A stretch of DNA of 64,000 nt from Patescibacteria group bacterium (GTDB taxonomy: Bacteria; Patescibacteriota; Patescibacteriia; UBA10025; JAHIVO01): NCBI GenBank assembly GCA_049325535.1, contig JBMOKY010000001.1, positions 422,611-486,610 on the forward strand, written 5' to 3'. Every line of letters starts with the position of its first letter. The stretch's first letter is position 1. A model generated the notes under the pieces. It was not told the origin of the DNA, did no database searches, and saw only the letters and a list, made by a program, of their open reading frames with translations. This document shows, in pieces, positions 2,728 to 52,438 of this stretch. Position numbers and translations under genes: made by a program.

Positions 2728-2732
2728 GACTT

Positions 2733-2762
2733 GACAGCCATTGGTACCTGTGCTATGGTGGT
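2733..2762 (+). promoter_or_regulatory. sigma70-like promoter, TTGACA-17 nt-TATGGT
   Basis: Near-consensus -35 and -10 hexamers with 17-nt spacer, ~55 nt upstream of a small ORF. Confidence 0.35.
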
Positions 2763-2818
2763 TCGTTATAGCTTTTGCTAGACCCGCATACACGCGGCAT
2801 TAATTATACGATACGACC

Positions 2819-2968: not shown

Positions 2969-2983
2969 AAATTTGAAAAAAAT

Positions 2984-3016
2984 AGCCGTTTCTGATGAAG
3001 CGGTTATTTTTTTTGA
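2984..3016. terminator. rho-independent terminator (hairpin then TTATTTTTTTT), possibly bidirectional
   Basis: Stem TAGCCGTTTC/GAAGCGGTTA followed by a U-tract on +; lies between the small ORF (+) and the convergent GH1 gene (-). Confidence 0.45.
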
Positions 3017-3026
3017 CACGCGATGC

Positions 3027-4316: not shown

Positions 4317-4319
4317 GTA

Positions 4320-4736
4320 TCAGGACTGATTGAGTAATTCAAACGCCGGGTAGAGATTTTCGATGATAGGATACAGGCGGTAGTCGGCGGGGTGAATCCA
4401 TTGGTAGTGATCGTGATCGGTGCCGAGCCTGACGGTAGCGGTTTTGGCGTGGCAGCGAAAGAATATGCGGATGATCTGGTGCGGCTCGCCATTGACCACT
4501 GGCCAGGATTCATTGACGAAAAATGGCTGTCCAATTTCAATATCCAGTCCCGCTTCTTCACGCGCTTCCCGGCGCAGGGCATCGGTGATGTGCTCACCCG
4601 CTTCCATCCGACCGCCCACTACGTCGTATTTGCCGATCTGCGTGCCGGTAGTGTACCCGGGTGCTTCGCGGACGATCAGCACTTTTCCTTCATGAAAAAT
4701 AAATGCCTTGACTGCGGGAAATAATTTAGGTGGCAT
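4320..4736 (-). CDS. NUDIX hydrolase
   Basis: Nudix box GGRMEAGEHITDALRREAREEAGL; 138 aa. Confidence 0.8.
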   Translation of the reverse strand: MPPKLFPAVKAFIFHEGKVLIVREAPGYTTGTQIGKYDVVGGRMEAGEHITDALRREAREEAGLDIEIGQPFFVNESWPVVNGEPHQIIRIFFRCHAKTATVRLGTDHDHYQWIHPADYRLYPIIENLYPAFELLNQS

Positions 4737-5715
4737 ACGATATGTGGTGAGTGGCTTCGGTATACGTCGCGCTCTGGGTGTGGATTTCAGTCACGATGTC
4801 TGTCAGCGCCTGCTCGATGGTAGCCAGTCCGGTGACATGCACCAGCCGGGCGCGGTACTGAGCGGCATGGGGGATGCCGCGCACGTAGGCGAGGAGGTGT
4901 TTGCGGATTTCCAGTGAGGCTCCCTTTTCACCCTTGAGTTCATACAATAAGCGGGCATGTTCCATGATCAGCGGGATTTTTTCTGAAAAAGTCGTAGGTT
5001 GCTTTTCCGCAAATACCCAGGGGTTGCCGATGGCCGCTTGGCCGATGAGGAATCCGTCGAGCCCGCGCGTTTTTTCTACCCCGTCGGGGATGGAGGTGAT
5101 GCCGCCATTCGCCAGTACCGGTATGGATACGTTTTGTTTGAGTTCATATATGGGGGCAAAATCAGCGGGGCAGTTATACGGTTCGTCATAGGTCCGGCCG
5201 TGTATGGCGATGGCCTGGGCGCCGGCGCGTTCGCACCCTTTCCCGAATTCAGTCAGGTCGTCGGCATGCGACCAGCCCAGTCGGGTTTTGACGGAAACAG
5301 GAAGATTGGTAGCTTGCGCGACGGCCTCAATGAGCCTGAACGCCAGATCATGATTTCTGCGCAGGGCCACACCGTGCTCCGACCGCACCACTTTTTTCGA
5401 TGGACAGCCCATATTGATGTCGATACCATCAAACCCCATGTGCTCGAGGTGGCGCGCGGCGGTGACGAACGTATCCGGGTTTTTTCCGAATATTTGGGCG
5501 ATAATCGGGCGCTCAACTTGGTCAAATGAAAATTTTTCCAGTACTTTTTTCGCATGATGATGCACGCCGTCAGCCGAAGTAAATTCAGTGTACACGAGAA
5601 TATTTGGATTTACCGATTTACAGACGCGGCGAAAGGCGCTATCTGTGTAGCCGTCCATCGGCGATAGCCCTATGCGTGGTGCGGTGGTTTGGTGCCACAT
5701 ATGTGGGTGATTCAT
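4726..5715 (-). CDS. dus: tRNA-dihydrouridine synthase
   Basis: Dus family motifs LSPMDGYTDSAFRR and INMGCP (catalytic Cys); 329 aa. Confidence 0.85.
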   Translation of the reverse strand: MNHPHMWHQTTAPRIGLSPMDGYTDSAFRRVCKSVNPNILVYTEFTSADGVHHHAKKVLEKFSFDQVERPIIAQIFGKNPDTFVTAARHLEHMGFDGIDINMGCPSKKVVRSEHGVALRRNHDLAFRLIEAVAQATNLPVSVKTRLGWSHADDLTEFGKGCERAGAQAIAIHGRTYDEPYNCPADFAPIYELKQNVSIPVLANGGITSIPDGVEKTRGLDGFLIGQAAIGNPWVFAEKQPTTFSEKIPLIMEHARLLYELKGEKGASLEIRKHLLAYVRGIPHAAQYRARLVHVTGLATIEQALTDIVTEIHTQSATYTEATHHISYAT

Positions 5716-5787
5716 GGCACTACCGTATCATGGTACCCCTGGCAGCGTCAACGGACGAGAGCGCCTCCTGAGTGCGCGCAACTGAGC

Positions 5788-6060
5788 CTATACCCTGATA
5801 ATGTGTCGTACGATCAGCAGGGGGATAATAATATAAAGGATAGTATCCCGGATCAGGTAGTACACAAATACCCCCAGGAGCAGTTTCCAGCCGTATTTCT
5901 TGAAGAGCAATGTGATTCTCCAGCGGAGCCGGCTGAACAGAGATGCCGCGGATGCTGCCGGAACCGGCTGTCGCGCGTCGCGGAGGATGTGCTGGGCCAG
6001 CAATTTCAGCCGACGGAATACGCCTGGTCGGACCGGAGCGCTAGCGGGCGCAGACATGGT
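5788..6060 (-). CDS. hypothetical small protein with C-terminal TM helix (start uncertain)
   Basis: ORF-track 5788..6102; hydrophobic C-terminus LLLGVFVYYLIRDTILYIIIPLLIV; no recognisable domain. Confidence 0.2.
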   Translation of the reverse strand, partial: TMSAPASAPVRPGVFRRLKLLAQHILRDARQPVPAASAASLFSRLRWRITLLFKKYGWKLLLGVFVYYLIRDTILYIIIPLLIVRHIIRV

Positions 6061-6346
6061 ATGTTTTGATGCTGGAGGGCAGCGCCATCTTGCCGTTATC
6101 ATCTTTGAATTGTGCCAAGCGTTTGTGCCCCTCGTAAAATTCTGGGCTGCTGACCCATGCGTGAAAGTTTTCTTCGGGATCCCAGTGTGTCATGACTCAG
6201 TAGCTAGTTCCGGTCGTTAGCATGAGCACTTCTGCGCTGATGAAACCCGGGCGTCTGTGGAAAGCTCCAGCCCGGGTGATGAATGCTTGTTCAAACATGG
6301 CTGGGTATTGTTTGGGTACGTTTATGGTATTTATTGCGACGAACAT
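6041..6346 (-). pseudogene. antibiotic biosynthesis monooxygenase (ABM) domain gene interrupted by in-frame TGA at 6197-6199
   Basis: Manual translation gives MFVAINTINVPKQYPAMFEQAFITRAGAFHRRPGFISAEVLMLTTGTSY*VMTHWDPEENFHAWVSSPEFYEGHKRLAQFKDDNGKMALPSSIKTYHVCAR; both halves match the ABM fold pattern (EPGC-like and W-s-ea-h-SP-f motifs); the stop falls at a conserved hydrophobic position. Confidence 0.5.
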
Positions 6347-6466
6347 AAGCTTGTAAATATGGTATCAGAGTGAACTGACGAAAATGTGCTTATGACCGCC
6401 GCATGGTGGATGTCTAGACGGCTGTTCCGGTACGTAGCTGAATTCTGACGGTGAGATGTTTGCTGG

Positions 6467-7315
6467 TCATGTCTGCCGTGCGTTCTGTGTGCTGTTCCGG
6501 GAAAACATTCTCCACCAGAGTACCGTGATGACAGACAAATAGAGCAGGTATGCGCTTACCTCCAGCAAGGTCGGGTTGCCATTATATCCAAACAGCCCCT
6601 TGATGATACTGCCCAGGTATCCATTTTCATGGAGCGGGGGATAGACACCCGTCTCAGTAACCGATGGATTAATATCCCATACTTGGTGTGACCAGAATGA
6701 GATCGCGCCGGCTTCCTGCAGCTCATGGATGCCATGAGCCAATAAACCCGCAGCAAAGAGCATCAACATGATGCCGGTAATGGCAAAAAACCGCGTCAGA
6801 TTGATTCGCAGAAAGCCCCGGTATAATCCGTATCCGATACTGATGGCGATGATGATGCCAATCAGTGCTCCGATAAAGCTATGGTCAGGATCTATCATAC
6901 GTGCCGATCCGAGGAAGATGGCCATTTCAATCCCTTCGCGCAGTATCGCTACCAGTACCACCCAAAAGATTCCCATCGGATGCGCGTTGGTGATATGTCG
7001 GTCCAAATCAGCGTGGATCTCCGCCATCAATTGTTGTCGTCGCATCATCCAAAAGATGAGCGTGGTGATCAATATCGCGCCGGTAATCATAGCTATCCCT
7101 TCGTAGAGCGCTTCCGCTGTTCCCTCAAATCCACCAGCCAGCCGGTCAAATGCAATCGCGCCAATAATACTGAGCGCCGTGCCGATCCCAACGCCCATCC
7201 AGGCCATGCGGATATAGCGTGATTGGCCGGTCCGATTGAGATATCCGATGACGATGCCGACAACGAGTGCCGCTTCGAGGGTTTCGCGGAGGCCGATGAT
7301 TAAACTGGTGAACAT
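6467..7315 (-). CDS. FTR1/EfeU family high-affinity iron permease
   Basis: Two REXXE motifs (RETLE, REGIE) in TM helices; 7-TM topology. Confidence 0.75.
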   Translation of the reverse strand: MFTSLIIGLRETLEAALVVGIVIGYLNRTGQSRYIRMAWMGVGIGTALSIIGAIAFDRLAGGFEGTAEALYEGIAMITGAILITTLIFWMMRRQQLMAEIHADLDRHITNAHPMGIFWVVLVAILREGIEMAIFLGSARMIDPDHSFIGALIGIIIAISIGYGLYRGFLRINLTRFFAITGIMLMLFAAGLLAHGIHELQEAGAISFWSHQVWDINPSVTETGVYPPLHENGYLGSIIKGLFGYNGNPTLLEVSAYLLYLSVITVLWWRMFSRNSTQNARQT

Positions 7316-9953: not shown

Positions 9954-11702
9954 TTGTCCCGAAGGGAGAAAAATGGTATAGTAACGGTCAATTCTATGTC
10001 AAAAATTTGGCAGATTGCACCGCCGATTTCCGAGGATGTTCGCAACGCTTTTCCTGAAGTGCTGCCGCTGGTATTGCAGCTCCTGCACAATCGGGGACTC
10101 AAAACACAGCGTGAGATAGATGAATTCCTCAATCCTGATTATGGGGAAAATACCCATGATCCTTTTTTGTTTCGGCATATGGATCGGGCCGTTCAGCGGA
10201 TCATGACCGCAATACAGCGGGGCGAGCGCATTACAGTTCACGGTGATTATGACGCTGACGGGGTGTGCGCTACCGTTATCGCAGTTTCTGTGCTGCGGGC
10301 GCTCGGGGCTGATGTTACGGTGTATATCCCGCATCGCATGACCGAGGGCTATGGTCTGAATGCAAATACAGTCAATGAACTGGCCGCCCAGGGAACGACC
10401 GTAATCGTGACCGTCGATTGTGGCGTCAGCAATAAAGCCGAGGTCGTCCAGGCGCAGCAACGAGGCATTGACGTCATTATCACCGATCATCATGAGGAAC
10501 CGCCAGAATTACCCCCGGCGTATGCCATCATCAATCCCAGCGTGGCGGCTGATACGTATCCTTTTCGCACGCTGGCTGGATCCGGCGTGGCTTTTAAACT
10601 GGCCCAGGCGCTAGTTCGGCGCGACGGTGGGGTAAAACTCAAAGAGGGATTTGAAAAATGGCTGCTGGACGTGGTGGCCATCGGAACGATAGCCGATATG
10701 GTGCCTCTGGTCGGAGAAAATCGGACGCTGGCAAAATATGGATTAATCGTTCTGCAGAAAACGAAACGGCTGGGGTTGCGTGCGCTGGCGGAGTATTCAC
10801 GGTTTCCGCTGGAGAGCGTCGACAGTGCGGGTGTGGCATTTGGCATCGTTCCGCGTCTGAATGCGGCGGGGCGGATAGATCATGCCAATACTGCATTTGA
10901 GCTGCTGATGTGTGAGGATACCGGGGAGGCTCAGCGGGTGGCGGAGAGCCTGGAAAAGAATAATAAAGAGCGGCAGCGTATGACTGAACAGATGGTACAA
11001 GAGTCAAAACGCCAGCTGGGGGATGTGGGTGACGAGCGCATCCTATTTGCCATCGGAGATGACTGGTCAGCTGGATTGGTCGGGTTGGTCGCCGGTCGGC
11101 TGATGGATCACTATGACCGCCCGGTAATCGTCATGGGAAACCGCGGCGGCGAGATAATGGGATCGGGTCGTTCCATCGCTCCATTTGACATTACCGCAGC
11201 GCTGGTGAAATCCAGAGCATATCTGGATCGATATGGCGGTCATGCCAGCGCCTGTGGATTTACCCTGAAACCGGGAATGCTGGAACAATTTAAAGCGTCG
11301 ATGCGCAGTCTGGCGGGGCAGGCGATTTCCCCGCACGATATGACCAAGCGACTGGCTATAGATGCAGCTGTGTCGCTCGGAGATATCACCTGGGATATCG
11401 TCACTGCACTGGAAGGCTTCGAACCGTTTGGTCAGGGCAATCCAGCAGTTCGTTTTGCCGCGCGGCAATTACGGGTGGCTGATTTCCAGAAAGTGGGCAC
11501 CGATGGCAAGCATCTTCGGCTGCATGTCGAACAAGACGGGGTCACGAAGAAATTGATCGCTTTTGGCTATGGAAATTCCTGGGGTAACGAACTGGCCATC
11601 GGCGATATGATTGACGCTGTATTCGAATTAGCAGTTAATGAGTGGAATGGTAATCGCGAGCTGCAACTGAAATTAGTGGATATCCAGAGGAACACACTAT
11701 GA
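9954..11702 (+). CDS. recJ: single-stranded-DNA-specific exonuclease RecJ
   Basis: DHH family motifs HGDYDADGVCAT and DHHE; DHHA1 region; 582 aa. Confidence 0.85.
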   Translation: MSRREKNGIVTVNSMSKIWQIAPPISEDVRNAFPEVLPLVLQLLHNRGLKTQREIDEFLNPDYGENTHDPFLFRHMDRAVQRIMTAIQRGERITVHGDYDADGVCATVIAVSVLRALGADVTVYIPHRMTEGYGLNANTVNELAAQGTTVIVTVDCGVSNKAEVVQAQQRGIDVIITDHHEEPPELPPAYAIINPSVAADTYPFRTLAGSGVAFKLAQALVRRDGGVKLKEGFEKWLLDVVAIGTIADMVPLVGENRTLAKYGLIVLQKTKRLGLRALAEYSRFPLESVDSAGVAFGIVPRLNAAGRIDHANTAFELLMCEDTGEAQRVAESLEKNNKERQRMTEQMVQESKRQLGDVGDERILFAIGDDWSAGLVGLVAGRLMDHYDRPVIVMGNRGGEIMGSGRSIAPFDITAALVKSRAYLDRYGGHASACGFTLKPGMLEQFKASMRSLAGQAISPHDMTKRLAIDAAVSLGDITWDIVTALEGFEPFGQGNPAVRFAARQLRVADFQKVGTDGKHLRLHVEQDGVTKKLIAFGYGNSWGNELAIGDMIDAVFELAVNEWNGNRELQLKLVDIQRNTL

Positions 11703-12106: not shown

Positions 12107-12978
12107 TCGTCAATATTATTCTGGGATGTTTAGTGTTGAGTTTTCTCGCTATCGGGATGGCGTGGTTTGTCTCATCTCGGATTATCATGCAGCCACGAGA
12201 GGTGCATGAGGAAGAATGGCGCCAATATCATTTGCATCGTGAACACATATCGTTTCGTTCCGCTGACGGGCTGCTTTTGGACGGCGCATTCATCCATGGG
12301 TCACACGGAGCTACCATCATACTGCTCCACGGGTACGGCCGTTCAAAAGAACAGATGTTGCCGCAGGCGCGCCTGCTGAATGACGCCGGGTATTCCATTT
12401 TCATGTTTGATTTTCGTGCGTCGGGCAAAAGCGAGGGTAAATATATTACTTTTGGCGGGCGGGAGGTAGCCGATCTCGAGGGAGCTATTCAGTATTTAAA
12501 AACGCGCATCGATGTAAATATGGACCGTATCGGGGTACTGGGATTTTCCATGGGCGGCGCGGTGGCGATTTTGAAATCCGGGGATTTGCCGATCAAGGCG
12601 CTGGTGGTCAATTCAGCCTTTGCCCGGTTCAAATCGGTTATCTGGCAAAATTTTCGTCTATATCTGAAGGGGATTCCATTTTTTCCACTGGGGTATCTGA
12701 CGTTATTGGTCATGAAACTACGCACCGGCATATACTATTCCGCCATCAATCCCATACGATCCATGCAGAAACTAAAGGCGATCCCGCTGCTCATTATCCA
12801 CGGCGCGCATGACCGGCGTATTCCGGTCGAGGATGCCATGGAATTTCATCGCAGCGCCCCGTGGATTAAAGAGTTCTGGCTAGTGCGCCGTGCCGAACAC
12901 ACGGACGTGTATACGGTTACCAAAGACGAGTACGAACACAAGGTACTCAGTTTTTTCCGCAAATATTTACTCCACTAA
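12103..12978 (+). CDS. alpha/beta-fold hydrolase with N-terminal TM anchor
   Basis: GFSMGG nucleophile elbow, HGYGRS oxyanion region; 291 aa. Confidence 0.6.
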   Translation: MIVNIILGCLVLSFLAIGMAWFVSSRIIMQPREVHEEEWRQYHLHREHISFRSADGLLLDGAFIHGSHGATIILLHGYGRSKEQMLPQARLLNDAGYSIFMFDFRASGKSEGKYITFGGREVADLEGAIQYLKTRIDVNMDRIGVLGFSMGGAVAILKSGDLPIKALVVNSAFARFKSVIWQNFRLYLKGIPFFPLGYLTLLVMKLRTGIYYSAINPIRSMQKLKAIPLLIIHGAHDRRIPVEDAMEFHRSAPWIKEFWLVRRAEHTDVYTVTKDEYEHKVLSFFRKYLLH

Positions 12979-13662
12979 GAAGCGCTCGGGGAAATCAGTA
13001 AAGATACCATCGACATGGCAACCCGTGACTCGATCGTAGTCGGCAGGTGCATTGACGGTATACGTAAACACTTTCAAACCGGCCTGGTGTGCTGCGGTCA
13101 CCAGTTCGTTTGTTATTGATTTGTTATCTGGATTGACCGAATACGCCCGCATGGCACTGGCGTATGCAATTGGTTGGGCTGGCATGTCACTGCCAAAAAG
13201 TACGCCGATGGCAATATCAGGCTGTAATTGTTTTAACTCTCGCAATTGCGGGTGATCAAATGATGAAATGAGAAATTGACGGAGGGTCCAACTGTGTTTT
13301 TGAACATACTCGGAAATTTTTTGCGCTACTGGATGTGCCGTTCCCACACCTTTCAATTCAATATTTATTGAACAGCGGTGATCAAGTAGTATGAGTAATT
13401 CGTCCAATGTAGGCACATATGCGCCACCGCCGGCATCGAGCTGCTGAAGTTCGTGGCGTGTCAGGTCTGAAACTGCACCCGTACCGTTTGTTGTTCGATC
13501 AACTGTTTCATCGTGGATAACGATGAGATCCCCGGTTTTGCATACATGTACATCACATTCTACCATGCTCACGCCCATTTTCTGTGCAGCAGCGAAAGAT
13601 GGGAGGGTATTCTCAGGGCGGGAACCGGCGGCACCCCGGTGGCCGATGATAAGTGGTTTTGT
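12967..13662 (-). CDS. glycerophosphodiester phosphodiesterase (start at MTKPLIIGHRG; ORF-track N-terminal extension rejected)
   Basis: GDPD signature IIGHRGAAGSRPENTLPSF plus ECDVH; the extended ORF 12967..13896 would overlap the rnpB promoter. Confidence 0.7.
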   Translation of the reverse strand, partial: TKPLIIGHRGAAGSRPENTLPSFAAAQKMGVSMVECDVHVCKTGDLIVIHDETVDRTTNGTGAVSDLTRHELQQLDAGGGAYVPTLDELLILLDHRCSINIELKGVGTAHPVAQKISEYVQKHSWTLRQFLISSFDHPQLRELKQLQPDIAIGVLFGSDMPAQPIAYASAMRAYSVNPDNKSITNELVTAAHQAGLKVFTYTVNAPADYDRVTGCHVDGIFTDFPERFLVE

Positions 13663-13695
13663 CATACGTGGGAAGTATAGCCTACGGATTTGATA

Positions 13696-13724
13696 TTGAC
13701 AAAAATGCCTTATTTTTCTATACT
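13696..13724 (+). promoter_or_regulatory. sigma70-like promoter for rnpB, TTGACA-17 nt-TATACT
   Basis: Consensus -35, 17-nt spacer, good -10, ending ~7 nt before the RNase P RNA 5' end. Confidence 0.45.
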
Positions 13725-13731
13725 CCATCAT

Positions 13732-14137
13732 GCCCAAGTAAACTGGATGATTGCACGTTACATCATGTAATGTGAGGAAAGTCCGAACACCTCCGCCTAT
13801 ATAGGGCGGAACGTGGATAGTCGTGAAAGACGACCGAGGTGCAGCAACTAGAAGGTCTATAGTCTTCTGGATGTTGTCTTCAGGGAATAGTGTCACAGAG
13901 ACAATACCGCCCCGTCATCCGACAGGGTAAGGGTGAAAAGAGTGGGGTAAGAGCCCACAGGTTTGACCGGTGACGATCGAACGTGAAAAACCCTATCCGG
14001 TGCAAGACCAAGTAGGGTGCCCATTGGGCATCGGGTTGGTCGCATGATTCCGATGGTAACGTCGGAACCAGATAGATAATCATCGTCCACCGTTGGTGGA
14101 TACAGAATTCGGCTTACAGGTTTACTTGGGCACAACC
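13732..14137 (+). ncRNA. rnpB: RNase P RNA, bacterial type A
   Basis: P4 motif GAGGAAAGUCCGAACAC; P10-12 region GGGUAAGGGUGAAAAGAGUGGGGUAAGAGCCCAC; 3' motif ACAGAAUUCGGCUUACAG; P1 pairing GCCCAAGUAAAC / GUUUACUUGGGC. Confidence 0.8.
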
Positions 14138-19592: not shown

Positions 19593-21944
19593 ATGGCCGT
19601 GACGCACCACAATTCGCCGCACATTTCAACATCCCGTAAACCAGCCGGGCATACTGGCGTGCCTCGTGAAAATGTCATTGATCTGCGCGCGGTGCGGCGG
19701 GCGGAGATGCAGCATATCGATTTACCCCAGCCAGCTCTTCGCGAACGGCTGGCACAACGTTTTCAGGATTGGCGCACCCGCCGGCAGAGCCGGCGGCAGC
19801 ATCGGCATGCTGAGCGAGCGATGCGTGAACACGTCATCGTCTCGCGTGCGCACGAGCAACCGTCTACACCAATCGTATTTTCCGGCACAAGCAAAACCGC
19901 GCCATCCTCGGCTGTGTCGGCTCATGACCGTGCGGATTTGCCAGCACCATCCACCCGGATTCGGAGGGGATTTGCTCTGGTACCCGGCTGGCCACGCCGA
20001 TTAGCGTGGTTTGCCGCCATGTGCCTGGTGCTGCTCATACCCGTTGTCGGTACTTCGGTTTATCGCCAGGTAGTGGAGGCGAAAGGTGTGGTACTGGGTA
20101 TTTCTTCCGATGCCTATGGCGATTTGCGACAGGCCGGGAGCGCCGCGGGAAATGCGGATTTCGCTGAGGCGGCTGACCAGTTCAGAGCTGCCGCTGAAGC
20201 ATTTACCGTCGCTCAAGGCGAGCTGGATTCAGCGGGCGGTATCCTGACGACGGTAGCCGGCGCTATACCGGGTAAGGTGCAGAGCGCCGAGTCTCTTCTG
20301 GATGCCGGTAAATACCTCAGTCAGGCGGGCGCTACCGTCAGCCAGCTGATTCACAGCCTAGCCGGCGTCAGCGCCGATCCTGCCGATACCGAACATTCGT
20401 CATTGACCACGTATTTAGCTATTGCCCGGGACAGTATGGAGCCGGTTGCGGCGGACGTGGATGCCGCAGTCACTGCGCTTCAGGCGGTGCGATTGAAGGA
20501 TTTGCCGGATGAGTATCAGCGACCGATCAGCACGCTCCAGCAGTCGCTTCCCATTGTTCGTGATCGTCTCACCGACTTCAGTCAGCTCTCCGATGCGCTA
20601 CTCTATATACTGGGTGACGATGCTCCCCGGCGGTATGTGTTGGCTTTTCAGAATAACCGTGAACTCCGGCCGACCGGTGGATTTATCGGATCCGTCGCGC
20701 TCGTGGACATCAGCCGCGGTAGCATAGAAAATATCGAGGTCCCTGGCGGCGGCGTCTATGATATTGCCGGGCAGCTGCAGGAAAAATTGATTGCTCCGAA
20801 GCCGCTTTGGCTGGTCAATCCGCACTGGAATATACAGGACAGTAATTGGTTTCCGGATTTTCCCGCGTCAGCAAAAAAAATGATGTGGTTTTTTGAGCGT
20901 ACGGGTGGTACCTCGGTGGATGGGGTGCTGACGCTGACGCCGACCGTCATCGAGCGGATGCTGGACATTACCGGACCCATCGATATGCAGGCCGACTATG
21001 GCATTACTGTCACTGCCGACAATTTCGTCAGGGAAGCGCAGACTTTTGCCGAAATAACCTATGACCGTGACGAAAACCAACCGAAGAAATTCATCGGCGA
21101 TCTGGTGCCGATTATCCTCAATCGGGTTTTTCACGCTGACACTGAAACGCTGACATCGGTGGTGGACGTGCTCATCGGCTCGTTGCAGGATCACAATATG
21201 CTACTGTATTTTTCTGATGCTCCGGTGCAGTCCCGAATCGCTGAGTATGGCTGGGACGGGGGAGTGCGGCAGGCGTCGGATGACTATCTGTACGTGGTCA
21301 ATACAAATATCGCCGGCGGCAAGACTGACCATGTCATCGATCAGTTTATCAGGCATGATACAACCATTTCAGCGGACGGAAGCGTGATCGATACCGTCTC
21401 ATTGACGCGAGTCCATCGCGGCAGCCCGGTAGATGCGTTTGATGGGCAGGCGAATGTTTCGTATGTCCGCTTCTATGTGCCCCAGGGGAGCACGCTTATT
21501 TCAGCTGAGGGATTTGATCGGATTCCCGCCAGCCGATTCCACCAGCCAGATCTGGATGCCCAAGCGGACACCGATCTCCAGTTAGTAGAGCGCAATGCCA
21601 CTCTGCACGAGCAGAGTGATACCCGCATCACGCAGGAATTCGGCAAGACGGCGTTTGGCAATTGGATCAGCATCGATCCGGGCGAATCACAAACCGTGAC
21701 GATACGATACCGTTTGCCGCAGCAGATTCATGTCGGCGGGTTTATCAATACTACGGACACCTATTCACTCTATGTCCAGTCCCAGCCTGGCACGCACTCG
21801 TCCGCATTTATTCATACGGTCGCGCTTCCAGAAAAGATGAAACTTCGCTGGGCTTCGGCTGACGCTCAAATCGCCGACCGTACCATCAGCTTTAGCGTCG
21901 ATCTGGACACTGACCGCCAGTTTTCCATATTGCTTGATAAATAA
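19593..21944 (+). CDS. DUF4012-like membrane-anchored protein with long basic/low-complexity N-terminus
   Basis: 783 aa; N-terminal ~130 aa Arg/His-rich region, one TM, then large exported domain with LAFQNNRELRPTGGFIGS motif that I recall as typical of DUF4012. Confidence 0.45.
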   Translation: MAVTHHNSPHISTSRKPAGHTGVPRENVIDLRAVRRAEMQHIDLPQPALRERLAQRFQDWRTRRQSRRQHRHAERAMREHVIVSRAHEQPSTPIVFSGTSKTAPSSAVSAHDRADLPAPSTRIRRGFALVPGWPRRLAWFAAMCLVLLIPVVGTSVYRQVVEAKGVVLGISSDAYGDLRQAGSAAGNADFAEAADQFRAAAEAFTVAQGELDSAGGILTTVAGAIPGKVQSAESLLDAGKYLSQAGATVSQLIHSLAGVSADPADTEHSSLTTYLAIARDSMEPVAADVDAAVTALQAVRLKDLPDEYQRPISTLQQSLPIVRDRLTDFSQLSDALLYILGDDAPRRYVLAFQNNRELRPTGGFIGSVALVDISRGSIENIEVPGGGVYDIAGQLQEKLIAPKPLWLVNPHWNIQDSNWFPDFPASAKKMMWFFERTGGTSVDGVLTLTPTVIERMLDITGPIDMQADYGITVTADNFVREAQTFAEITYDRDENQPKKFIGDLVPIILNRVFHADTETLTSVVDVLIGSLQDHNMLLYFSDAPVQSRIAEYGWDGGVRQASDDYLYVVNTNIAGGKTDHVIDQFIRHDTTISADGSVIDTVSLTRVHRGSPVDAFDGQANVSYVRFYVPQGSTLISAEGFDRIPASRFHQPDLDAQADTDLQLVERNATLHEQSDTRITQEFGKTAFGNWISIDPGESQTVTIRYRLPQQIHVGGFINTTDTYSLYVQSQPGTHSSAFIHTVALPEKMKLRWASADAQIADRTISFSVDLDTDRQFSILLDK

Positions 21945-22070: not shown

Positions 22071-22099
22071 TTGACCCATAAACCATATAGGTATATGAT
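22071..22099 (+). promoter_or_regulatory. sigma70-like promoter, TTGACC-17 nt-TATGAT
   Basis: Near-consensus elements with 17-nt spacer in an otherwise non-coding AT-rich region. Confidence 0.4.
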
Positions 22100-22105
22100 A
22101 GTTCG

Positions 22106-22292
22106 TTACGCTATTGATTCTTTTACATCACATATAAACTCTTTGAGGAGAGAGTCACCGCAAACGCCGGTGGAAATGCGTTTGGTACAAGCCATGAATA
22201 GCGTACTATCGTAGTATTGCGCTCAATTATTACAACGACCAATAACTCAAGCAAAAAACGTCTCTCCCTCAAACACGGAAAGACGTTTTTTG
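22106..22292 (+). ncRNA. candidate small RNA (~187 nt) bounded by the promoter and an intrinsic terminator
   Basis: No credible ORF; 5' segment GUUACGCUAUU can pair with AAUAGCGUAC (22197-22206); internal hairpin CAAACGC...GCGUUUG; ends in a terminator. Confidence 0.3.
22253..22292. terminator. strong rho-independent terminator, bidirectional (A-tract upstream, U-tract downstream)
   Basis: AAAAAACGUCU / AGACGUUUUUU 11-bp stem with 17-nt loop. Confidence 0.5.
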
Positions 22293-22560
22293 TAAACTTG
22301 AAAACTCCTTTCAAAAAGTAGTTTTCAATGCTTTCCGCAAAGCAGTAGTATCGCTCGCCCGACATAAAGTCGATGCTCGCGATGCTCCAATAGTTTGTAC
22401 TTAGGGAAAAGGAGGACGAGTAATGGGTGCCACTCTGAGATAGTCGTGATCCGGTTTCGACTGGAACATAACTACCTCTGGCACTCGGTGCGTCGGTTAC
22501 TTCGGTGACTAAAGGCGCGCCTCTCGAATCCTTCTCCCTACATACAAATTGTCCTTCTAT

Positions 22561-22666
22561 ATCCTCCACATATCTGCTTCTAGGCCTCCCGAACATCTCT
22601 AATGTTCTCGAGGCCTCCTTTCTCCAGCGGTTAACGAGTTTTCTCATTAATTACTGAAGAAAGGAA
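22561..22666 (+). repeat. intergenic structured repeat, copy A (long form)
   Basis: Hairpin 1 AGGCCUCCCGAACAU..AUGUUCUCGAGGCCU, then CCUCCUUUCUCCAGCGG..loop with UCUCAU..CUGAAGAAAGGAAA; ~85% identical to copy B. Confidence 0.55.
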
Positions 22667-22687
22667 AAGAAAAAAAGGGTGTAAAAA

Positions 22688-22912
22688 ATGAAAAACCTTA
22701 AAAAAGCTCTTTACAACTGGTCTATACCAGTTTCCATTTCCCTAATCAGCATGTTACTTGCTGGTTGCACGATGGAAACGATCCTTGCAGTTTCATTACC
22801 TGGAGCAGTAATTTGCTTCGTCATTACTACGATTCTCTATATAAAGGTAATCGAAGCTGCAGTAATACTAGTAGTACTGTTGATTACAACATTTGCAAGA
22901 CACGCTATGTAG
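22688..22912 (+). CDS. small membrane protein, 74 aa, 2 TM
   Basis: ORF directly after repeat copy A; AAGGGUG SD 7 nt upstream of the ATG. Confidence 0.45.
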   Translation: MKNLKKALYNWSIPVSISLISMLLAGCTMETILAVSLPGAVICFVITTILYIKVIEAAVILVVLLITTFARHAM

Positions 22913-22936
22913 TTTTGCAAAAAAATCGCTACTTTT

Positions 22937-23041
22937 ATCCTCCACATCTGCCTTAGGCCACCCGAACATCTCAAATGTATCCCGTGGCCTCCTTTCTCCA
23001 GCGGTTAACGAGTTTTCTCATTAATTGCTGAAGAAGGGAAA
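22937..23041 (+). repeat. intergenic structured repeat, copy B (long form)
   Basis: Same two-hairpin architecture and conserved CCUCCUUUCUCCAGCGGUUAACGAGUUUUCUCAUUAAUUGCUGAAGAAGGGAAA. Confidence 0.55.
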
Positions 23042-23081
23042 TATGTTCATTGAGAGATCACAATCAAAATCGGAGGAAATC

Positions 23082-23600
23082 ATGAAGTTCGTATTCTTCG
23101 CCATCGGTATCATCGCGCTTATAGCTCTGGGTATCATTGCCCTAGTCGCCGAATACACATTCGATTCAGAGTGCGGCAACTATCTGAAGTTGGCCGGTGA
23201 TGCGCCAACTGTCGAAAAAGCCGATGAATTTCTCGGCTATGCGATTGGTTACATCGAGCGTGAGCGTCTCACCACGGGGAATAGTGGCGTCATTTTCAGA
23301 AGCTACCCCACCAATGACCTAGCCATCTGGTACGGTCAGATCAAGGGTGCGAAGCAAACTACCGAAAGCATCATTGATCGGACGAAGTCTGATTCTGCCT
23401 CAGTGTCGCAGTTGGAGCGCGACAACGCCCTGATGAAAATCAGGGAGGTTGTCCTCGACCAGGACGAGAAGGGAACGTCGGTGACGCATCCTGACTGGAT
23501 CATTTTCTATCCGAGTCAGGTGCTCTACTGGTTTGTATTCTGGATCGCCCTTATCGCGGTCGGGATATGTGTCATCGCGTTCATTGTTGGGTATAACTGA
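23082..23600 (+). CDS. membrane protein, 172 aa, N- and C-terminal TM helices (start at ATG 23082 with GGAGGAAAUC SD)
   Basis: ORF-track 23025..23600 begins at TTG inside the repeat; ATG at 23082 has a perfect SD. Confidence 0.5.
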   Translation: MKFVFFAIGIIALIALGIIALVAEYTFDSECGNYLKLAGDAPTVEKADEFLGYAIGYIERERLTTGNSGVIFRSYPTNDLAIWYGQIKGAKQTTESIIDRTKSDSASVSQLERDNALMKIREVVLDQDEKGTSVTHPDWIIFYPSQVLYWFVFWIALIAVGICVIAFIVGYN

Positions 23601-23621
23601 GATTGTGACGAACGTGATCAT

Positions 23622-23700
23622 GGCGAGGGACGTTCTATCCGTTCCTCGCCTCCTTTCTCCAGCGATTGATGGGTGATCTCATTGATTGCTGAAGAAAGAA
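23622..23700 (+). repeat. intergenic structured repeat, copy C (short form)
   Basis: GC hairpin GGCGAGGGACG..CCGUUCCUCGCC then CCUCCUUUCUCCAGCGA..UCUCAU..UGCUGAAGAAAGAAA. Confidence 0.5.
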
Positions 23701-23733
23701 ATCGCACGTTTACTAGTGAATAAGGGGCTAGTC

Positions 23734-24216
23734 ATGAAAACACTTTTAGGATTCGGAATCGCTTTTGCTGGTGCTGGCGTCGGGGTATTTGTCACTTACT
23801 TGTTTGGCCTTGCCTATGGCCTGCCACTCAAGTGGAGTGACATGACGTCGCACGAAAACCTGCCATTTATGGCAGTGGCGATCGTCGGTTGCCTCGCAAC
23901 CACTATCATCCGTGAGCTGTTTGGGCGGGTTATCGGCGGTCCGTTTTCAAGAACGGTTGACATGAATCGTTGGGCCGCCATTACGGCATGGTCGCTCGTC
24001 CTCGTCATATTGGTTAATCTGTACATACTTCCGTATAGCGGGTCGAGCTTCTGGGCCATGTCGCTCGTGGTTGGAAATTTTCTTCCGATGCTGCTGTACA
24101 ACGATTTGGAAAAAAGCATCGGGACAAAAAAGCAGTTTGCCCTGCAAACCCTCGGAGTCTCGGTACTCATGCTACTGGCCGCATACGCCGTCGCATGGGT
24201 ACATGTACAGCTCTAG
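23734..24216 (+). CDS. polytopic membrane protein, 160 aa (start at ATG 23734 with AAGGGG SD)
   Basis: ORF-track 23686..24216 begins at TTG inside the repeat; 4-5 TM helices. Confidence 0.5.
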   Translation: MKTLLGFGIAFAGAGVGVFVTYLFGLAYGLPLKWSDMTSHENLPFMAVAIVGCLATTIIRELFGRVIGGPFSRTVDMNRWAAITAWSLVLVILVNLYILPYSGSSFWAMSLVVGNFLPMLLYNDLEKSIGTKKQFALQTLGVSVLMLLAAYAVAWVHVQL

Positions 24217-24228
24217 CCTAGCCTAGTT

Positions 24229-24326
24229 TGTTCGAGAAGGTGAATGTCACAAAGACATATATCTCACCTTCTCGAACACCTTCTCCAGCGCAGTACGGGT
24301 AATCTCATACTGTGCTGAAGAAGGAA
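24229..24326 (+). repeat. intergenic structured repeat, copy D (diverged)
   Basis: Perfect 14-bp hairpin GUUCGAGAAGGUGA..UCACCUUCUCGAAC then CACCUUCUCCAGCG..UCUCAU..UGCUGAAGAAGGAAC. Confidence 0.45.
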
Positions 24327-24525
24327 CATTCAAAAAAAACTTATCACCGAAATGGAGGGGTAGTCTGGTGTACACCTGGCATATGCTGCGCGGTACCCAC
24401 TGCGTTATGTGCCTGGATATACCGTTGTCCGTCAGTCCAATTTATTGGGCAAAGGCGGGCGGCTCGCCTCCACTTCGGTGGTTAGATAGAACACGATCTT
24501 CGACAAAAAAAGAAAGGAAGGTATT

Positions 24526-24984
24526 ATGGAAATACCCCAGGAATATCATATCATTAGAATACTGGTGAATACCGGTATTCTGGCGCTGCCGTGGCTGAAG
24601 CTGCGGTCGCACCACTTCCAGGACCATTTCTGGAAGTCACCGGAAAACCGCGCCGGGTGGACGGCCTGGCTGCTGATACTGAATCTGGTGCTGGTCTGGC
24701 TGCCATTGCCGGACATCAATTACCAGTGGCCGTCAGTCGGAGGGTGGTGGGAGAACTTCGTCTCCTACTACATCACTGACGCGGTCAATCGCGTCGTAGG
24801 CTACTTCTTCTGCTATGCTGGAGGAGGAGCGCTACTGGCCATCTTCGGGGTCGGTTGGGCTGCTGGATTTCATCGCAATGCGGTGGGATTTGAGCGGACT
24901 GCCGCCAAGCTGTTTATCATCCTCGTGGGAATCGTTGCTGGCGGCTTCATAACCTTCTTCCCCTGGTGGTTTCCGGGGAACTGA
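24526..24984 (+). CDS. Trp-rich polytopic membrane protein, 152 aa
   Basis: GAAAGGAAGG SD upstream of the ATG; 4 predicted TM helices; no recognisable domain. Confidence 0.5.
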   Translation: MEIPQEYHIIRILVNTGILALPWLKLRSHHFQDHFWKSPENRAGWTAWLLILNLVLVWLPLPDINYQWPSVGGWWENFVSYYITDAVNRVVGYFFCYAGGGALLAIFGVGWAAGFHRNAVGFERTAAKLFIILVGIVAGGFITFFPWWFPGN

Positions 24985-25448
24985 CCACCACTTTCGGAAG
25001 GGGAGCGTATGCAGGTATTCACGATTGTTGTATAACGATTGTGAATCGGCTGCGCTCCCCCTCATTCTCGAACGTATGATCAATCATATGCTCGCGCGTG
25101 GGACGCGATATTGACAATATATCTTCTTGCGGTTATAGCTACTTATGTGCTCACTCTGGTGGGCACCGAAAAAGCTGCCGATGAGTTTTTAAAAGACGGC
25201 GCATCACTTCTTTTTGAGGAAAACTCTCTCCTCAATGCCCTCAATTATTTGAAGGCATATCTCAAAAAGTAGTACCCATGCGTTGTCGCTTGTCGGCAGC
25301 TTTTTGGTTTGCTATAAAGAACTGCTTGTGCAGCATTATTTGCGGGCCCACTCGCTTTCCCGTCAGGGCAACCTGGAGGTCCTTCGTATGACTTAGGATG
25401 GTTTGCTTTTACAAACCATTTTACGACACACTAATTATATAAATAGAC

Positions 25449-25477
25449 TTGATTTTTGAAGAAAAAGTTGTTATAAT
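25449..25477 (+). promoter_or_regulatory. sigma70-like promoter for murJ, TTGATT-17 nt-TATAAT; predicts a leaderless or near-leaderless mRNA
   Basis: -10 ends 9 nt before the murJ ATG (25487), so the predicted TSS is 0-3 nt upstream of the ATG. Confidence 0.4.
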
Positions 25478-25486: not shown

Positions 25487-27106
25487 ATGTTCAGCAGGAT
25501 TTGGCATAAATTAACCACCACCCTTACCGGTGGTGCAATTATTATCGCAGTGGCCTCGGTCGCAAGTCGGTTGATTGGATTGGTGCGAGATCGGCTGCTT
25601 GCCACACAGTTTGGAGCGGGAGATAGCCTGGACGTGTATTATGCCGCCTTTCGTATTCCGGATTTAGTTTTTAATGTTTTGGTTCTCGGCGCCTTGTCCG
25701 CGGCTTTTATACCGGTATTTGTCCAGTACATTGAGCGTGCTAAGGCTGGTACGCAGCAGAAGGAAGAGGTCTGGTATTTGGTAAATTCACTTCTGAATAT
25801 CTTATTGATCGGACTGTGTGTATTTGGCGCGGTTCTTTTTATTTTCGCTCCGCAGATTGTACCTCTGATTGCTCCCGGTTTTGATCCAGAGAAACGACTG
25901 ATGGTGGTGCAGATGACGCGTATTATGTTGGTATCGATACTCTTTTTCGGTGCGAGCAACATCATGACTGGCATTCTCAATTCCTTCAAACGGTATGTCA
26001 ATTTTGCGTTTGCGCCGGTACTGTATAATTTTGGCATTATTATCGGTATTTACGCCTTGGTGCCTCACTATGGTGTATACGGCCTGGCCTATGGTGTGGT
26101 GGTCGGTTCGTTTTTGCATATGGCGATTCAGCTTCCCGGCGTATTCCGCCTCGGCTATCGCTACCGTTTTGTGGCGGATCGGAAGCATCCCGGTGTTCGC
26201 GAAATCGGCCGGTTGATGGTACCGCGGACGTTTGGACTGGCGGTCAATCAAATCGACCAGTTGGTGAGCGTGATTATTGGTTCGACACTGGCGGTCGGTT
26301 CGGTAACGATTTTCAATTTTGCAAACAATCTTCAACATTTTCCTATCAGCGTGTTTGGCGTTTCTTTGGCTGTGGCTTCGTACCCATTTTTTAGCGAGGC
26401 ATCTGCTCGAAAAGATGGGGAGATGTTTGTCGTCCACTTTTCCACGACACTGCGGCGGATACTTTTTCTCATCATCCCCACGTCGGTATTGATTTTGCTG
26501 CTTCGGGCTCAGATTGTCCGAGTGGTACTCGGCGCCGGGGCATTTGACTGGAATGACACCTATTTGACCGCACAGACGTTGGGTTTTTTTGCCATATCGT
26601 TATTCGCACAGAGTACCATTCCGCTATTGACGCGCTCATTTTATGCCTGGCATGATACGAAAACTCCAGTCAAGGTCGGCTTGCTGAGCGTCGGCGCGAA
26701 TATCCTCGGCGCGTATATTCTCAGTCGTATATTTGGCGTGATCGGACTGGGTGTTTCGTATTCTATCGCCAGCATCATACAGATGGCCGTTTTGTTCTGG
26801 CTATTGAGACGGCAGCGTGGGTATCTCGACGACCGGAAAATAATATACTCTGTGACTAAAATAGTCCTGATTAGCGCCATGATGGGCGCCATCGTCATCG
26901 GCGCAAAATATGTACTGGCGCTCGGGGTGAACATGCAGTCGTTTGTCGGTATTTTCATCCAGGGGATGGGCGCGGGAATAGTCGGGCTGGTCAGCTATAT
27001 GGTTTTAGCGTTCGTGTTCCGCTGCGATGAAATCACGATAATTACTCAATGGATTCAGAAAGCCCGGCTGCAATTATTTAATGGAAAGACTCCTGCCCAT
27101 GACTAG
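25487..27106 (+). CDS. murJ: lipid II flippase MurJ
   Basis: MviN/MurJ signature region RLIGLVRDRLLATQFGAGDSLDVYYAAFRIPD; 14-TM MOP-family protein; 539 aa. Confidence 0.85.
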   Translation: MFSRIWHKLTTTLTGGAIIIAVASVASRLIGLVRDRLLATQFGAGDSLDVYYAAFRIPDLVFNVLVLGALSAAFIPVFVQYIERAKAGTQQKEEVWYLVNSLLNILLIGLCVFGAVLFIFAPQIVPLIAPGFDPEKRLMVVQMTRIMLVSILFFGASNIMTGILNSFKRYVNFAFAPVLYNFGIIIGIYALVPHYGVYGLAYGVVVGSFLHMAIQLPGVFRLGYRYRFVADRKHPGVREIGRLMVPRTFGLAVNQIDQLVSVIIGSTLAVGSVTIFNFANNLQHFPISVFGVSLAVASYPFFSEASARKDGEMFVVHFSTTLRRILFLIIPTSVLILLLRAQIVRVVLGAGAFDWNDTYLTAQTLGFFAISLFAQSTIPLLTRSFYAWHDTKTPVKVGLLSVGANILGAYILSRIFGVIGLGVSYSIASIIQMAVLFWLLRRQRGYLDDRKIIYSVTKIVLISAMMGAIVIGAKYVLALGVNMQSFVGIFIQGMGAGIVGLVSYMVLAFVFRCDEITIITQWIQKARLQLFNGKTPAHD

Positions 27107-52428: not shown

Positions 52429-52438
52429 AGTATTATTT

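Follow-up and report, generated by a model that had tools for sequence, protein, structure and literature searches.

The window (the whole stretch of DNA analysed, 64 kb) carries on its + strand a co-directional row of mutually unrelated genes for small envelope proteins, and this array occupies a fixed position within a cell-surface and envelope-glycan gene cluster, always between a DUF4012 gene and murJ. The initial annotation had described four same-strand genes for unrelated small transmembrane (TM) proteins, and this description holds: the open reading frames (ORFs) encode 74, 172, 160 and 152 aa, their products have one to four hydrophobic segments each and BLASTP detects no similarity among the four. 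Gene 1 (22688–22912, +; 74 aa) is predicted from its hydrophobic segments to encode a membrane protein. Gene 2 (23082–23600, +; 172 aa) encodes a protein with N- and C-terminal TM helices, for which the AlphaFold model has a pLDDT of 96 and for which a Foldseek comparison with the PDB returned non-significant helical-bundle matches only. Gene 3 (23734–24216, +; 160 aa, four TM segments) occurs in all strain contigs that span its position. Gene 4 (24526–24984, +; 152 aa, membrane protein) is the sole cassette that is conserved between species, with BLASTP homologues of 163 aa in L019 (E = 7 × 10−5) and 134 aa in L020 (E = 2 × 10−4). Among 20 cassette proteins examined with Pfam and PADLOC, the only match was one FHA domain in L023. 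We also considered whether the repeats between the genes arose by tandem duplication of a single gene family and rejected this, as most cassettes are unrelated in all-against-all BLASTP, the exceptions being one trio of paralogues (L151) and the conserved last gene.

The cassettes are separated by a two-hairpin element, of which four strong copies (A–D) lie on the + strand between 22583 and 24324, followed by a decayed fifth copy after gene 4. The spaced pattern CTCCAGCG..GCTGAAGAA has three exact matches against 0.00 expected, with copy A one base off. Each copy consists of a variable GC hairpin (H1) that abuts a conserved hairpin of ~23 bp (H2), in line with the variable hairpin and conserved module noted at the outset, and all four fold into two neighbouring hairpins (z between −4.8 and −8.7 relative to shuffled sequences). 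Element A comprises a GC-rich H1 at 22583–22615, which in other strains has a different sequence in the same place, and an H2 at 22616–22665 (~23 bp with a C·A mismatch; 75.5 bits with a covariance model, and supported by folding). The H1 of element B (22956–22989) differs from that of A by a compensatory change, GGCCUC/GAGGCC against GGCCAC/GUGGCC, and is followed by H2 at 22990–23039 (79.7 bits). Element C has a terminator-like H1 (23622–23650) that passes a terminator scan, and H2 at 23651–23700 (73.1 bits). The H1 of element D (24229–24278) is an inverted repeat with 15-nt arms that are 100% complementary, and its H2 spans 24279–24324 (70.7 bits). All of these features are on the + strand, the H1 hairpins being assigned by folding. 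Copies A and B begin with the prefix AUCCUCCACAU, as previously reported. The terminal degenerate element (~25000–25094, +) contains a strong H1-like hairpin, then CCCCCUCAUUCUCGAACG and a short hairpin (fold z = −4.6); it has lost the purine 3′ arm, resembles GCCUCCUUUCUCCAGCG and falls below the covariance-model threshold. The element does not completely fill the intergenic gaps, as had been stated: H1 and H2 together take up ~80–100 nt of gaps of 169, 133 and 309 nt, and the last of these also accommodates a distinct structured domain of ~145 nt (24349–24492).

H2 is built from a pyrimidine/purine lower stem of 6–9 bp, a C·A mismatch, a covarying upper stem of 11–14 bp and a tetraloop. The folded form is one continuous helix that has no bulged bases, and across 32 copies this helix is 20–23 bp long (about two turns of double-stranded RNA (dsRNA)). 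What had been taken for a ~25-nt loop is in fact 13–14 bp of covarying upper stem with the tetraloop, and the supposedly invariant UCUCAU, which is the 3′ strand of that stem, is constant within the species of the window and its closest relatives but not beyond them. The 5′ arm CCUCCUUUCU is found in copies A–C, and copy D reads CACCUUCUCC. In an alignment of nine copies, double changes occur at nine pairs; in one of 21 copies from seven related genomes, 17 of the 23 pairs have compensatory changes and 88% of cells are paired, a level reached by none of 500 shuffles and lost in slid registers (43–55% paired). The C·A mismatch between lower and upper stems, which the initial annotation had pointed out, is present in 17 of the 21 copies and replaced by U-A in the other four. 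The sequence around it is conserved (YCCAGCG/UGCUGAA), with a near-invariant G·U pair at CAGCG/UGCUG and many further G·U pairs, and the pyrimidine-5′/purine-3′ polarity is strict. The lower stem, mismatch and upper stem hold their lengths while the sequence drifts (for example, UCUCCAGCG, CUCUCAAGUC and UCUCCCAG), and the gap between H1 and H2 is 0–2 nt in 29 of 32 copies. Summed over the 21 copies, the minimum free energy is −512 kcal/mol for the + strand compared with −414 for the − strand, and the + strand is favoured in 17 of 21. A search of the window against Rfam 15 found RNase P only; H2 itself gave only sub-threshold matches to miRNA-like hairpins, none near the gathering threshold, and five related loci had no match. 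The module is an undescribed, conserved two-hairpin RNA element that has no Rfam family, and the first impression that it was not a recognized regulatory RNA was correct.

Using MurJ homologues to reach relatives, we found the module at every cassette boundary in DUF4012–[array]–murJ loci of at least nine Kerfeldbacteria-like Patescibacteria species, and the locus is syntenic across deep divergence, back to murJ at 56% identity. The orientation of the copies relative to the genes is constant, copies within one genome evolve in concert and there are n + 1 module sites for n cassettes. The palindromic, intergenic and repeated nature of the element would fit a selfish repeat of the REP or MITE type that accumulated in the region by chance; a REP-like element had been proposed early on, and REP/BIME sequences of enterobacteria are likewise intercistronic imperfect palindromes that can stabilize upstream mRNA and promote rearrangements. 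REP sequences, however, are dispersed in hundreds of copies in both orientations and linked to RAYT, whereas the element here has a much longer stem and is confined to one syntenic locus in one orientation. The covariance model, run with filters off, detected no H2 in the window beyond the four array copies, and none in ~170 kb of flanks at related loci. An exact scan for the spaced pattern in species-representative genomes gave only two matches, both chance occurrences inside coding regions; in all metagenome records it gave ten, eight of them chance, and the remaining two contigs both carry the array. A looser pattern matched at least 120 stretches of viral contigs, and none of the 80 listed loci that were checked with the covariance model was a real copy; blastn found no match to the module in phage and plasmid collections. 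As there is also no RAYT or transposase nearby, we consider a chance accumulation of selfish repeats highly improbable.

The likeness of the 5′ arm CCUCCUUUCU to the bacterial anti-Shine–Dalgarno (anti-SD) sequence had suggested a switch in which this arm sequesters the purine-rich, SD-like 3′ arm or titrates ribosomes, and thereby controls each downstream gene; the organism's own 16S rRNA lies outside the window. In copies A–C, CCUCCUUUCU does pair with GAAGAAAGG, a start codon is occasionally close to the 3′ arm (gene 2 has an in-frame ATG further upstream, at 23043) and copy L020a is followed by an upstream ORF of six codons. However, CCUCC occurs in only 10 of the 32 copies and is lineage-specific; the features conserved across species are instead the pairing, the pyrimidine/purine polarity and the C·A mismatch. 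The SD sequences lie outside H2, beyond the hairpin by ~7–30 nt for genes 1–3 and by ~200 nt for gene 4. The start codons of genes 1–3 are 22–41 nt 3′ of H2, and across species this distance is ~22–65 nt, or ~200 nt where another RNA domain intervenes. Two-gene cassettes have no module copy between their genes, and in L023, L027 and L151 the array closes, after its last cassette, with a complete copy immediately ahead of the murJ promoter that has no cassette gene behind it, indicating that the element marks boundaries rather than individual start sites. H2 is moreover a simple hairpin in which the upper stem and loop are free to vary, and it has no core resembling a ligand pocket. Judged by these sequence comparisons, the translational-switch model appears largely refuted, and we regard it as very unlikely.

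The alternative that had been offered, of an element that defines gene cassettes, is supported by comparison of strains, which swap or lose whole cassettes with H2 at the boundaries. In strains of the species of the window, the first slot holds zero, one or two different cassettes: L013, L016, L017 and L018 carry another cassette in place of the segment 22667–23647, and L009 has nothing there, so that gene 1 is missing from all five, while the flanks of the swapped segment are 98–99.7% identical. Homology among strains resumes at 23648, at the H2 of element C, which is where the exchanged segment ends on its right side. No sequence other than H2 is common to all cassettes, and recombination may for this reason join cassettes there, leading to their gain and loss from strain to strain. 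The inferred crossovers differ in place, being in the 3′ arm in L009 and at the H1/H2 junction in L013, which fits homologous recombination better than a fixed point of cleavage.

These observations raise the possibility that H2, or H1 and H2 together, act as an attC-like DNA recombination site that folds as single-stranded DNA and at which a recombinase encoded elsewhere would excise, capture and rearrange cassettes. Like integron and CALIN arrays, the locus has promoterless, co-oriented and unrelated small ORFs behind one promoter, structured repeats between them in which structure is conserved more than sequence, and a cassette content that varies between strains. The n + 1 sites for n cassettes, the concerted evolution of the copies in a genome and the breakpoints within the element also favour this reading. 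The gene 2 family is moreover widespread: it has 79 homologues across CPR and DPANN, occurs again as an array cassette in the distant species L152 and is found elsewhere in unrelated contexts that do not have H2. However, a regular-expression search of H1 and H2 with margins on both strands found the R″/R′ core sites of attC (RYYYAAC...GTTRRRY), both present in the attC order and spacing, in 0 of 64 element-strands, which speaks against an attC identity, and H2 has a mismatch instead of extrahelical bases and has no unpaired central spacer. Pfam identified no recombinase among ~45 window ORFs (positions 1–57.5 kb), where the genes are envelope and housekeeping genes only, and precomputed Pfam annotations show none within ~7 kb of the array in eight other species; an adjacent integrase is optional for CALINs. 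Furthermore, the locus is a single syntenic chromosomal position across deep divergence and not a mobile platform, the crossovers fall at no single point and the strand bias fits the sense strand of the mRNA. We therefore consider an attC-like site unlikely.

The whole array lies behind one promoter. A sigma-70-type promoter, TTGACC-17-TATGAT (22071–22099, +; 10/12 in a consensus scan), is the one good + strand promoter upstream of the window array, and the alignment shows its block, CCCTTGAC...TATAxGAT, to be conserved in six species. Scans found one good + strand promoter per array, in arrays of up to at least 11 cassettes, and none inside the 7-kb L151 array. We rejected a promoter for each cassette within the element, as there is no consistent −10 at a fixed spacing from TTGCTG and scans of the window and L151 detected none; in the L027 array, one cassette apparently has a promoter of its own after H2. 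Downstream of the promoter is a structured leader. Its domain 1 (22106–22298, +; ..AACUCUUUGAGGAGAGAGU..ACCAAUAACUCAAGCAAAAAACG..), conserved in six species and with no Rfam match, ends in an intrinsic terminator hairpin (22252–22292, with arms that form an inverted repeat) and a U run, and its 5′ motif reads as complementary to the 5′ arm and loop of the terminator, which suggests a role as an attenuator or sRNA. Domain 2 (22403–22546, +), closed by a GGAGG/CCUUCUCC helix, is likewise conserved in six species and unmatched in Rfam; the RNAalifold consensus of eight copies has 26 pairs, 13 of which have compensatory changes. The structured domain in the last gap (24349–24492, +), between element D and gene 4, aligns with domain 2 as a second, diverged copy, and is conserved upstream of the gene 4 homologues in L020 and L019. 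Two further candidates in the leader were set aside: a leader peptide, MGATLR (22424–22444; six codons with a strong SD), is not conserved in other species, and the pairing of a GAGGAGAGAG motif in domain 1 with the pyrimidine arm of H2 is generic purine/pyrimidine complementarity without species-specific co-variation.

Such an arrangement could also be explained if the main function of the module were leaky intrinsic termination by H1 and the pyrimidine or U tract, grading or gating expression along the array, with leader domains 1 and 2 acting in antitermination and H2 as an accessory structure formed only on transcripts that read through. A U/C tract comes directly after the GC hairpin H1, the terminator consensus scan is passed by one of the four strong window copies (C) and by four copies in L025, and a single promoter serves up to at least 11 cassettes. 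Consistent with this, the terminator-bearing structured leader is shared by six species, domain 2 recurs inside arrays (three copies in L025 and two each in L023 and the window) and the locus lies within a long envelope-polysaccharide operon, the context in which known processive antitermination systems operate. However, the U tract is not conserved: H1 tails range from CCUUUUUUUC to CUCUCUCUCA, and neither the tail in the window (UCCUUUCUCC) nor that in L151 (CUCUCUCUC) is U-rich. The selected feature is instead the pairing of this tail with the downstream purine arm, which is maintained by compensatory changes and not needed by terminators; since a 3′ arm that is still untranscribed cannot contribute to termination, the strongest constraint, that on H2, is left unexplained. 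We consider a terminator as the chief function unlikely. The H1 tails are U-rich in L023, L025, L027 and L149 and several H1 hairpins pass the terminator scan, so termination could be the primary role in those four.

The reading that we favour, tentatively and at somewhat less than even confidence, is that H2 is a cis-acting module for RNA punctuation and processing, of the RNase III-site type, on one polycistronic transcript, and that its repeated sequence also supplies the homology used in cassette exchange. All 32 copies provide the dsRNA length that is typical of RNase III sites (at least ~20 bp, often with an imperfection in the middle of the helix). We infer the cleavage, the kind of factor involved and the effects on mRNA stability and translation. 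The promoter at 22071–22099 and the structured leader would drive the whole cassette array as one transcript, in which a double-strand-specific factor of the RNase III type would recognize H2 and probably cut near the mismatch. The mRNA of the upstream cassette would then be capped by H1 as a 3′ stabilizer (in species with U-rich tails, H1 may act instead as a leaky terminator), and that of the downstream cassette would gain a free, purine-rich 5′ leader, such that each cassette could be expressed independently of its neighbours. The closest parallel that we see is with the RNase III signals of phage T7 early mRNA (R0.3–R1.3), which are repeated hairpins of ~60 nt between the cistrons of a polycistronic transcript, have about two helical turns in which an imperfection in mid-helix separates the lower from the upper stem, and on cleavage leave a 3′ hairpin that stabilizes the mRNA on the upstream side and can expose the leader downstream. 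The two systems are unrelated in sequence. In the element here, one conserved C·A mismatch takes the place of an internal loop, H2 is always accompanied by a distinct adjoining H1, the polarity of the lower stem is strict and the setting is a CPR bacterial chromosome, where cleavage is a prediction. Several observations weigh against simple processing. The sequence flanking the mismatch and the strict polarity are conserved although a generic RNase III site needs neither, and this may point to a more dedicated partner or an additional function; the asymmetry of G·U over C·A would equally favour folding of the + strand as single-stranded DNA; and one L152 copy has an insertion of ~150 nt in the apical part of H2, which is hard to reconcile with strict measurement of distance from the loop. 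No RNase III gene (rnc) or other candidate factor is encoded in the window.

CPR/Patescibacteria make up a large, mostly uncultivated share of bacterial diversity and live attached to host cells; to our knowledge, almost nothing has been established about their RNA biology or surface variation. The locus contributes three structured RNA motifs that have clear covariation support and no family in Rfam 15, and we found no description of it in the literature on structured RNAs of Patescibacteria/CPR, Kerfeldbacteria or DUF4012. It is also a conserved hot spot in the envelope-glycan cluster, where strains exchange, gain or lose small membrane proteins that are unrelated to one another, the kind of variation expected under phage or host-recognition pressure. 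In this respect it resembles O-antigen and capsule loci, in which a variable segment lies between conserved envelope genes (here DUF4012, glycosyltransferases and murJ) and is replaced between strains, probably by homologous exchange; it differs from them in that the variable content is small ORFan membrane proteins rather than glycosyltransferases, and in that the units are discrete and delimited by a dedicated RNA structure. If the hairpin is a processing signal, it would be a natural part for insulating mRNAs; if it is a recombination site, cassette capture would have been invented a second time, independently. A broader and, in our view, improbable proposal combines the two in an integrase-independent gene-capture system of a CPR lineage, in which H1–H2 would serve both as an RNA processing signal and as the DNA site at which a putative enzyme inserts, excises and shuffles foreign small-protein genes from a pool shared by CPR and DPANN, governed by two new leader RNAs: the terminator-bearing domain 1 and the repeated domain 2, which may be a riboswitch or antiterminator. 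Such a system would parallel the integron in function but have an independent evolutionary origin. The grammar itself, leader–hairpin pair–cassette–hairpin pair, is an integron-like layout that has neither the recombination signals nor the enzyme of integrons.

The region between the DUF4012 gene (19593–21944) and murJ (25487–27106) contains four ORFs on the + strand, g74, g172, g160 and g152 (74, 172, 160 and 152 amino acids), the products of which have one to four hydrophobic segments each. These proteins show no detectable similarity to one another, and none of the four matched Pfam or PADLOC. One copy of a four-copy direct-repeat family (elements A–D) lies 5′ of each ORF, and the family's spaced core pattern was not found in shuffled sequence (0.00 matches expected). 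Every copy folds into two adjacent hairpins (z = −4.8 to −8.7), of which the first, H1, is variable and GC-rich and the second, H2, is conserved; a fifth, decayed copy is present 3′ of gene 4. The initial annotation described the sequence correctly except on two points: parts of the intergenic gaps, said to be filled completely by the repeat, are taken up by ordinary 5′ leaders and, in the gap ahead of gene 4, by a further structured domain, and the nucleotides taken for a loop of about 25 nt pair with one another as an upper stem. On the 3′ side of the degenerate terminal element, an ORF of 53 aa (25111–25272), hydrophobic at its N terminus, might be a fifth, decaying cassette.

Copies A/B, C and D have different upper-stem sequences in H2 but keep the pairing, and double changes occur at nine pairs among nine copies from three species. 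A covariance model of H2 built from these nine copies retrieved more copies in related genomes. Across an alignment of 21 copies from seven genomes, 88% of cells are paired and compensatory changes occur at 17 of the 23 pairs; none of 500 shuffles did as well, and slid registers were only 43–55% paired. The structure of H2 is under selection. Its lower stem (6–9 bp) pairs a 5′ strand of pyrimidines with a 3′ strand of purines and is followed by a C·A mismatch in 17 of the 21 copies (U-A in the remainder). Also in the hairpin are a box of 4 bp, which reads CAGC/GCUG in the lineage of the window and has a near-invariant G·U as its closing pair, and an upper stem of 11–14 bp with a small loop. 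More distant species retain this geometry in other letters, for instance CUCUCUCUC-A-AGUC...GGCUU-A-AGAGAGAG in locus L151 and UCUCCCAG...UGGGAGA in locus L152. One L152 copy (~9985–10150; UUCUCCCAG...UGUGGGAGAAAG) carries a GC-rich structured insertion of ~150 nt in its apical part, so the hairpin tolerates, or hosts, an inserted element. The gap between H1 and H2 is 0–2 nt in 29 of 32 copies. Folding energy favours the gene-sense strand for H2 (−512 versus −414 kcal/mol, with + better in 17 of 21 copies) and, more weakly, for H1 (−455 versus −408). Conserved letters around the mismatch, and a core that drifts in a concerted, lineage-specific way, suggest that a specific partner acts in trans.

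MurJ homologues place the source organism, a Patescibacteria (CPR) bacterium, near Candidatus Kerfeldbacteria. Nine species, with MurJ identities from 100% down to 56%, share the gene order glycosyltransferases, DUF4012, variable region, murJ and lepA; the variable region consists of 2 to >7 kb of small ORFs, and every covariance-model match lies within it. With filters off, a search of the 64-kb window found no copies beyond the four, and an exact pattern occurred, among all metagenome records, in only two real contigs, both belonging to this array. Searches of phages and plasmids gave no element match, and among viral contigs none of the 80 listed loci put to the covariance model scored as a true copy. 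REP or BIME elements, the former raised by the initial annotation for this recurring hairpin, would be expected to be dispersed; in the sequence searched the element is not, and we consider a selfish REP-like repeat extremely improbable. Rfam holds no family that matches the element, and we found no literature on this locus. The element is genuine, undescribed and well supported as structured, and its genomic grammar is unusual; the phylum that harbours it is poorly known.

Cassette content was compared among contigs of the window's species, the flanks of which are 98–99.7% identical. The window and L014 carry g74, g172, g160 and g152; in four others (L013, L016, L017 and L018) a different, soluble 157-aa gene replaces g74 and g172, and in L009 the first element is joined directly to g160. 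By blastn, the replaced segment extends from the end of H2-A (22666) to the start of H2-C (23648), which defines the mobile unit as leader, ORF(s) and H1, bounded by H2. The L009 junction falls in the 3′ arm of H2 (ATTGCUGAAGAA) and the L013 junction at the H1/H2 border, so the crossovers were not at one single point. Most cassettes are unrelated ORFans. The suggestion that the repeat delimits gene cassettes holds, at least descriptively, as whole cassettes are exchanged with H2 at their edges. Such exchange could also be the work of an attC-like DNA site served by a recombinase encoded at a distance; this is unlikely, given that attC core sites are absent from all 64 element-strands, that there are no extrahelical bases and that no integrase was found nearby. 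The ORF scan of the window (positions 1–57.5 kb) turned up neither a recombinase nor a transposase. Because H2 is the only homology common to all cassettes, their loss or replacement could proceed without a dedicated recombinase, through recombination between H2 copies or with incoming DNA of other strains.

Two-gene cassettes occur without an internal H2, and in L023, L027 and L151 a complete H1–H2 pair follows the last cassette, just 5′ of the murJ promoter. These arrangements point to an element that marks boundaries rather than to per-gene signals. They also bear on the proposal favoured by the initial annotation, that H2 mimics the anti-Shine–Dalgarno (SD) tail of 16S rRNA and acts as a translational switch, as such boundary logic does not suit a switch that works gene by gene. 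Only 10 of 32 copies contain the CCUCC on which the proposal drew, relatives carry UCUUUUUUCC, CACCUUUUUCC or CUCUCUCUC, and the SD sequences of genes 1–4 lie outside H2. In this one lineage a pyrimidine arm pairs with a purine arm, and the likeness to the 16S tail results from this; we regard an SD switch as very unlikely. In L151, positions 1–7000 hold at least 11 cassettes of an array that continues beyond the end of the retrieved locus. Several of the encoded proteins combine a hydrophobic helix at the N terminus with a soluble domain after it, a layout that recalls pilins or pseudopilins, and there is one paralogue trio (264, 1845 and 4675).

The only good + strand promoter 5′ of the window array is at 22071–22099. 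The 7-kb L151 array has no internal promoter, and the single strong promoter of L025 lies at the leader. Alignment of the leaders of six species reveals three conserved blocks: the promoter and two structured RNAs, domains 1 and 2. Domain 1 (~190 nt; 22071–22298 with the promoter, conserved in the six species) ends in an intrinsic terminator (22252–22292), the 5′ arm and loop of which (CUCUCCCUCAAA) can base-pair with a conserved motif that lies upstream, UUUGAGGAGAGAG. This pairing suggests that domain 1 is an attenuator, riboswitch or sRNA. A domain-1 motif, TTGAGGAGAGAGT (22143–22155), has a 13-nt perfect inverted match just past the array (25223–25235), adjoined by two collinear direct matches (D10 and D5); it could be the remnant of a duplicated leader or chance (rough expectation ~0.1). 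Domain 2 (~145 nt; 22403–22546) is likewise structured and is closed by a GGAGG/CCUUCUCC helix; its internal helices covary, and of the 26 predicted pairs 13 show compensatory changes. It occurs in two or three copies per array, before an H1–H2 pair or between H2 and the gene: again in the window before gene 4 (24349–24492), three times in L025 (2772–2912, ~4090–4235 and ~5135–5280) and twice in L023 (3293–3441 and 3941–4096). Domain 2 could be a riboswitch or an antiterminator. Rfam contains neither domain. The murJ promoter (TTGATT-17-TATAAT, 25449–25477) ends 9 nt 5′ of the murJ ATG, a distance that suggests a leaderless or near-leaderless mRNA.

H2 is probably a cis-acting RNA element of the array transcript. 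Its copies fall exactly at the junctions between units of a single polycistronic RNA, always with a stable hairpin on the 5′ side, and H2 resembles an RNase III-type processing signal in size and layout, with two helical turns and a conserved mid-helix imperfection. The early transcript of phage T7 has intercistronic RNase III sites, and these are the closest known working analogue of H2. By this analogy we tentatively propose, at somewhat less than even probability, that the module punctuates the array transcript: cleavage would occur within H2, H1 would cap and stabilize the upstream cassette mRNA (or, with a U-rich tail, serve as a leaky terminator), and the released purine-rich arm would become the start of the downstream mRNA. 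In a rival design, leaky termination is combined with antitermination and H2 is an accessory. H1 with its tail qualifies as an intrinsic terminator in some species only, and termination gives no reason why pairing with a downstream arm should be selected, and thus leaves H2 unaccounted for; we consider this design improbable.

The 172-aa protein (23082–23600) is a member of a conserved ~170-aa family that spans CPR bacteria and DPANN archaea and has invariant LERDNALMKIRE-like and YLKLAGDAP motifs. The family recurs as an array cassette in L152, and occurs without H2 in a Moranbacteria and a Nanoarchaeota genome. An AlphaFold model (pLDDT 96) predicts an N-terminal transmembrane helix, a helical domain with a small β-hairpin and a C-terminal transmembrane helix; the PDB yielded neither a sequence nor a fold match.

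The remainder of the window is an envelope-glycan super-locus with sugar transferase, GT4, GT2, flippase, nonulosonic-acid synthesis and MBOAT/AlgX genes. The nonulosonic (sialic-like) acid set (47783–57558, − strand) comprises UDP-GlcNAc 2-epimerase, NeuB, a CMP-transferase, a GNAT and a flippase, and adjoins many GT4 genes, a notably large investment in surface glycans for a genome of ~1.15 Mb. As listed, the lepA ORF and the end of murJ share 26 nt (27081–27106). A class A bacterial RNase P RNA (13735–14132, +; 217 bits) runs into the listed − strand GDPD ORF (12967–13896) at that ORF's 5′ end, so the true start of the ORF is probably further downstream.
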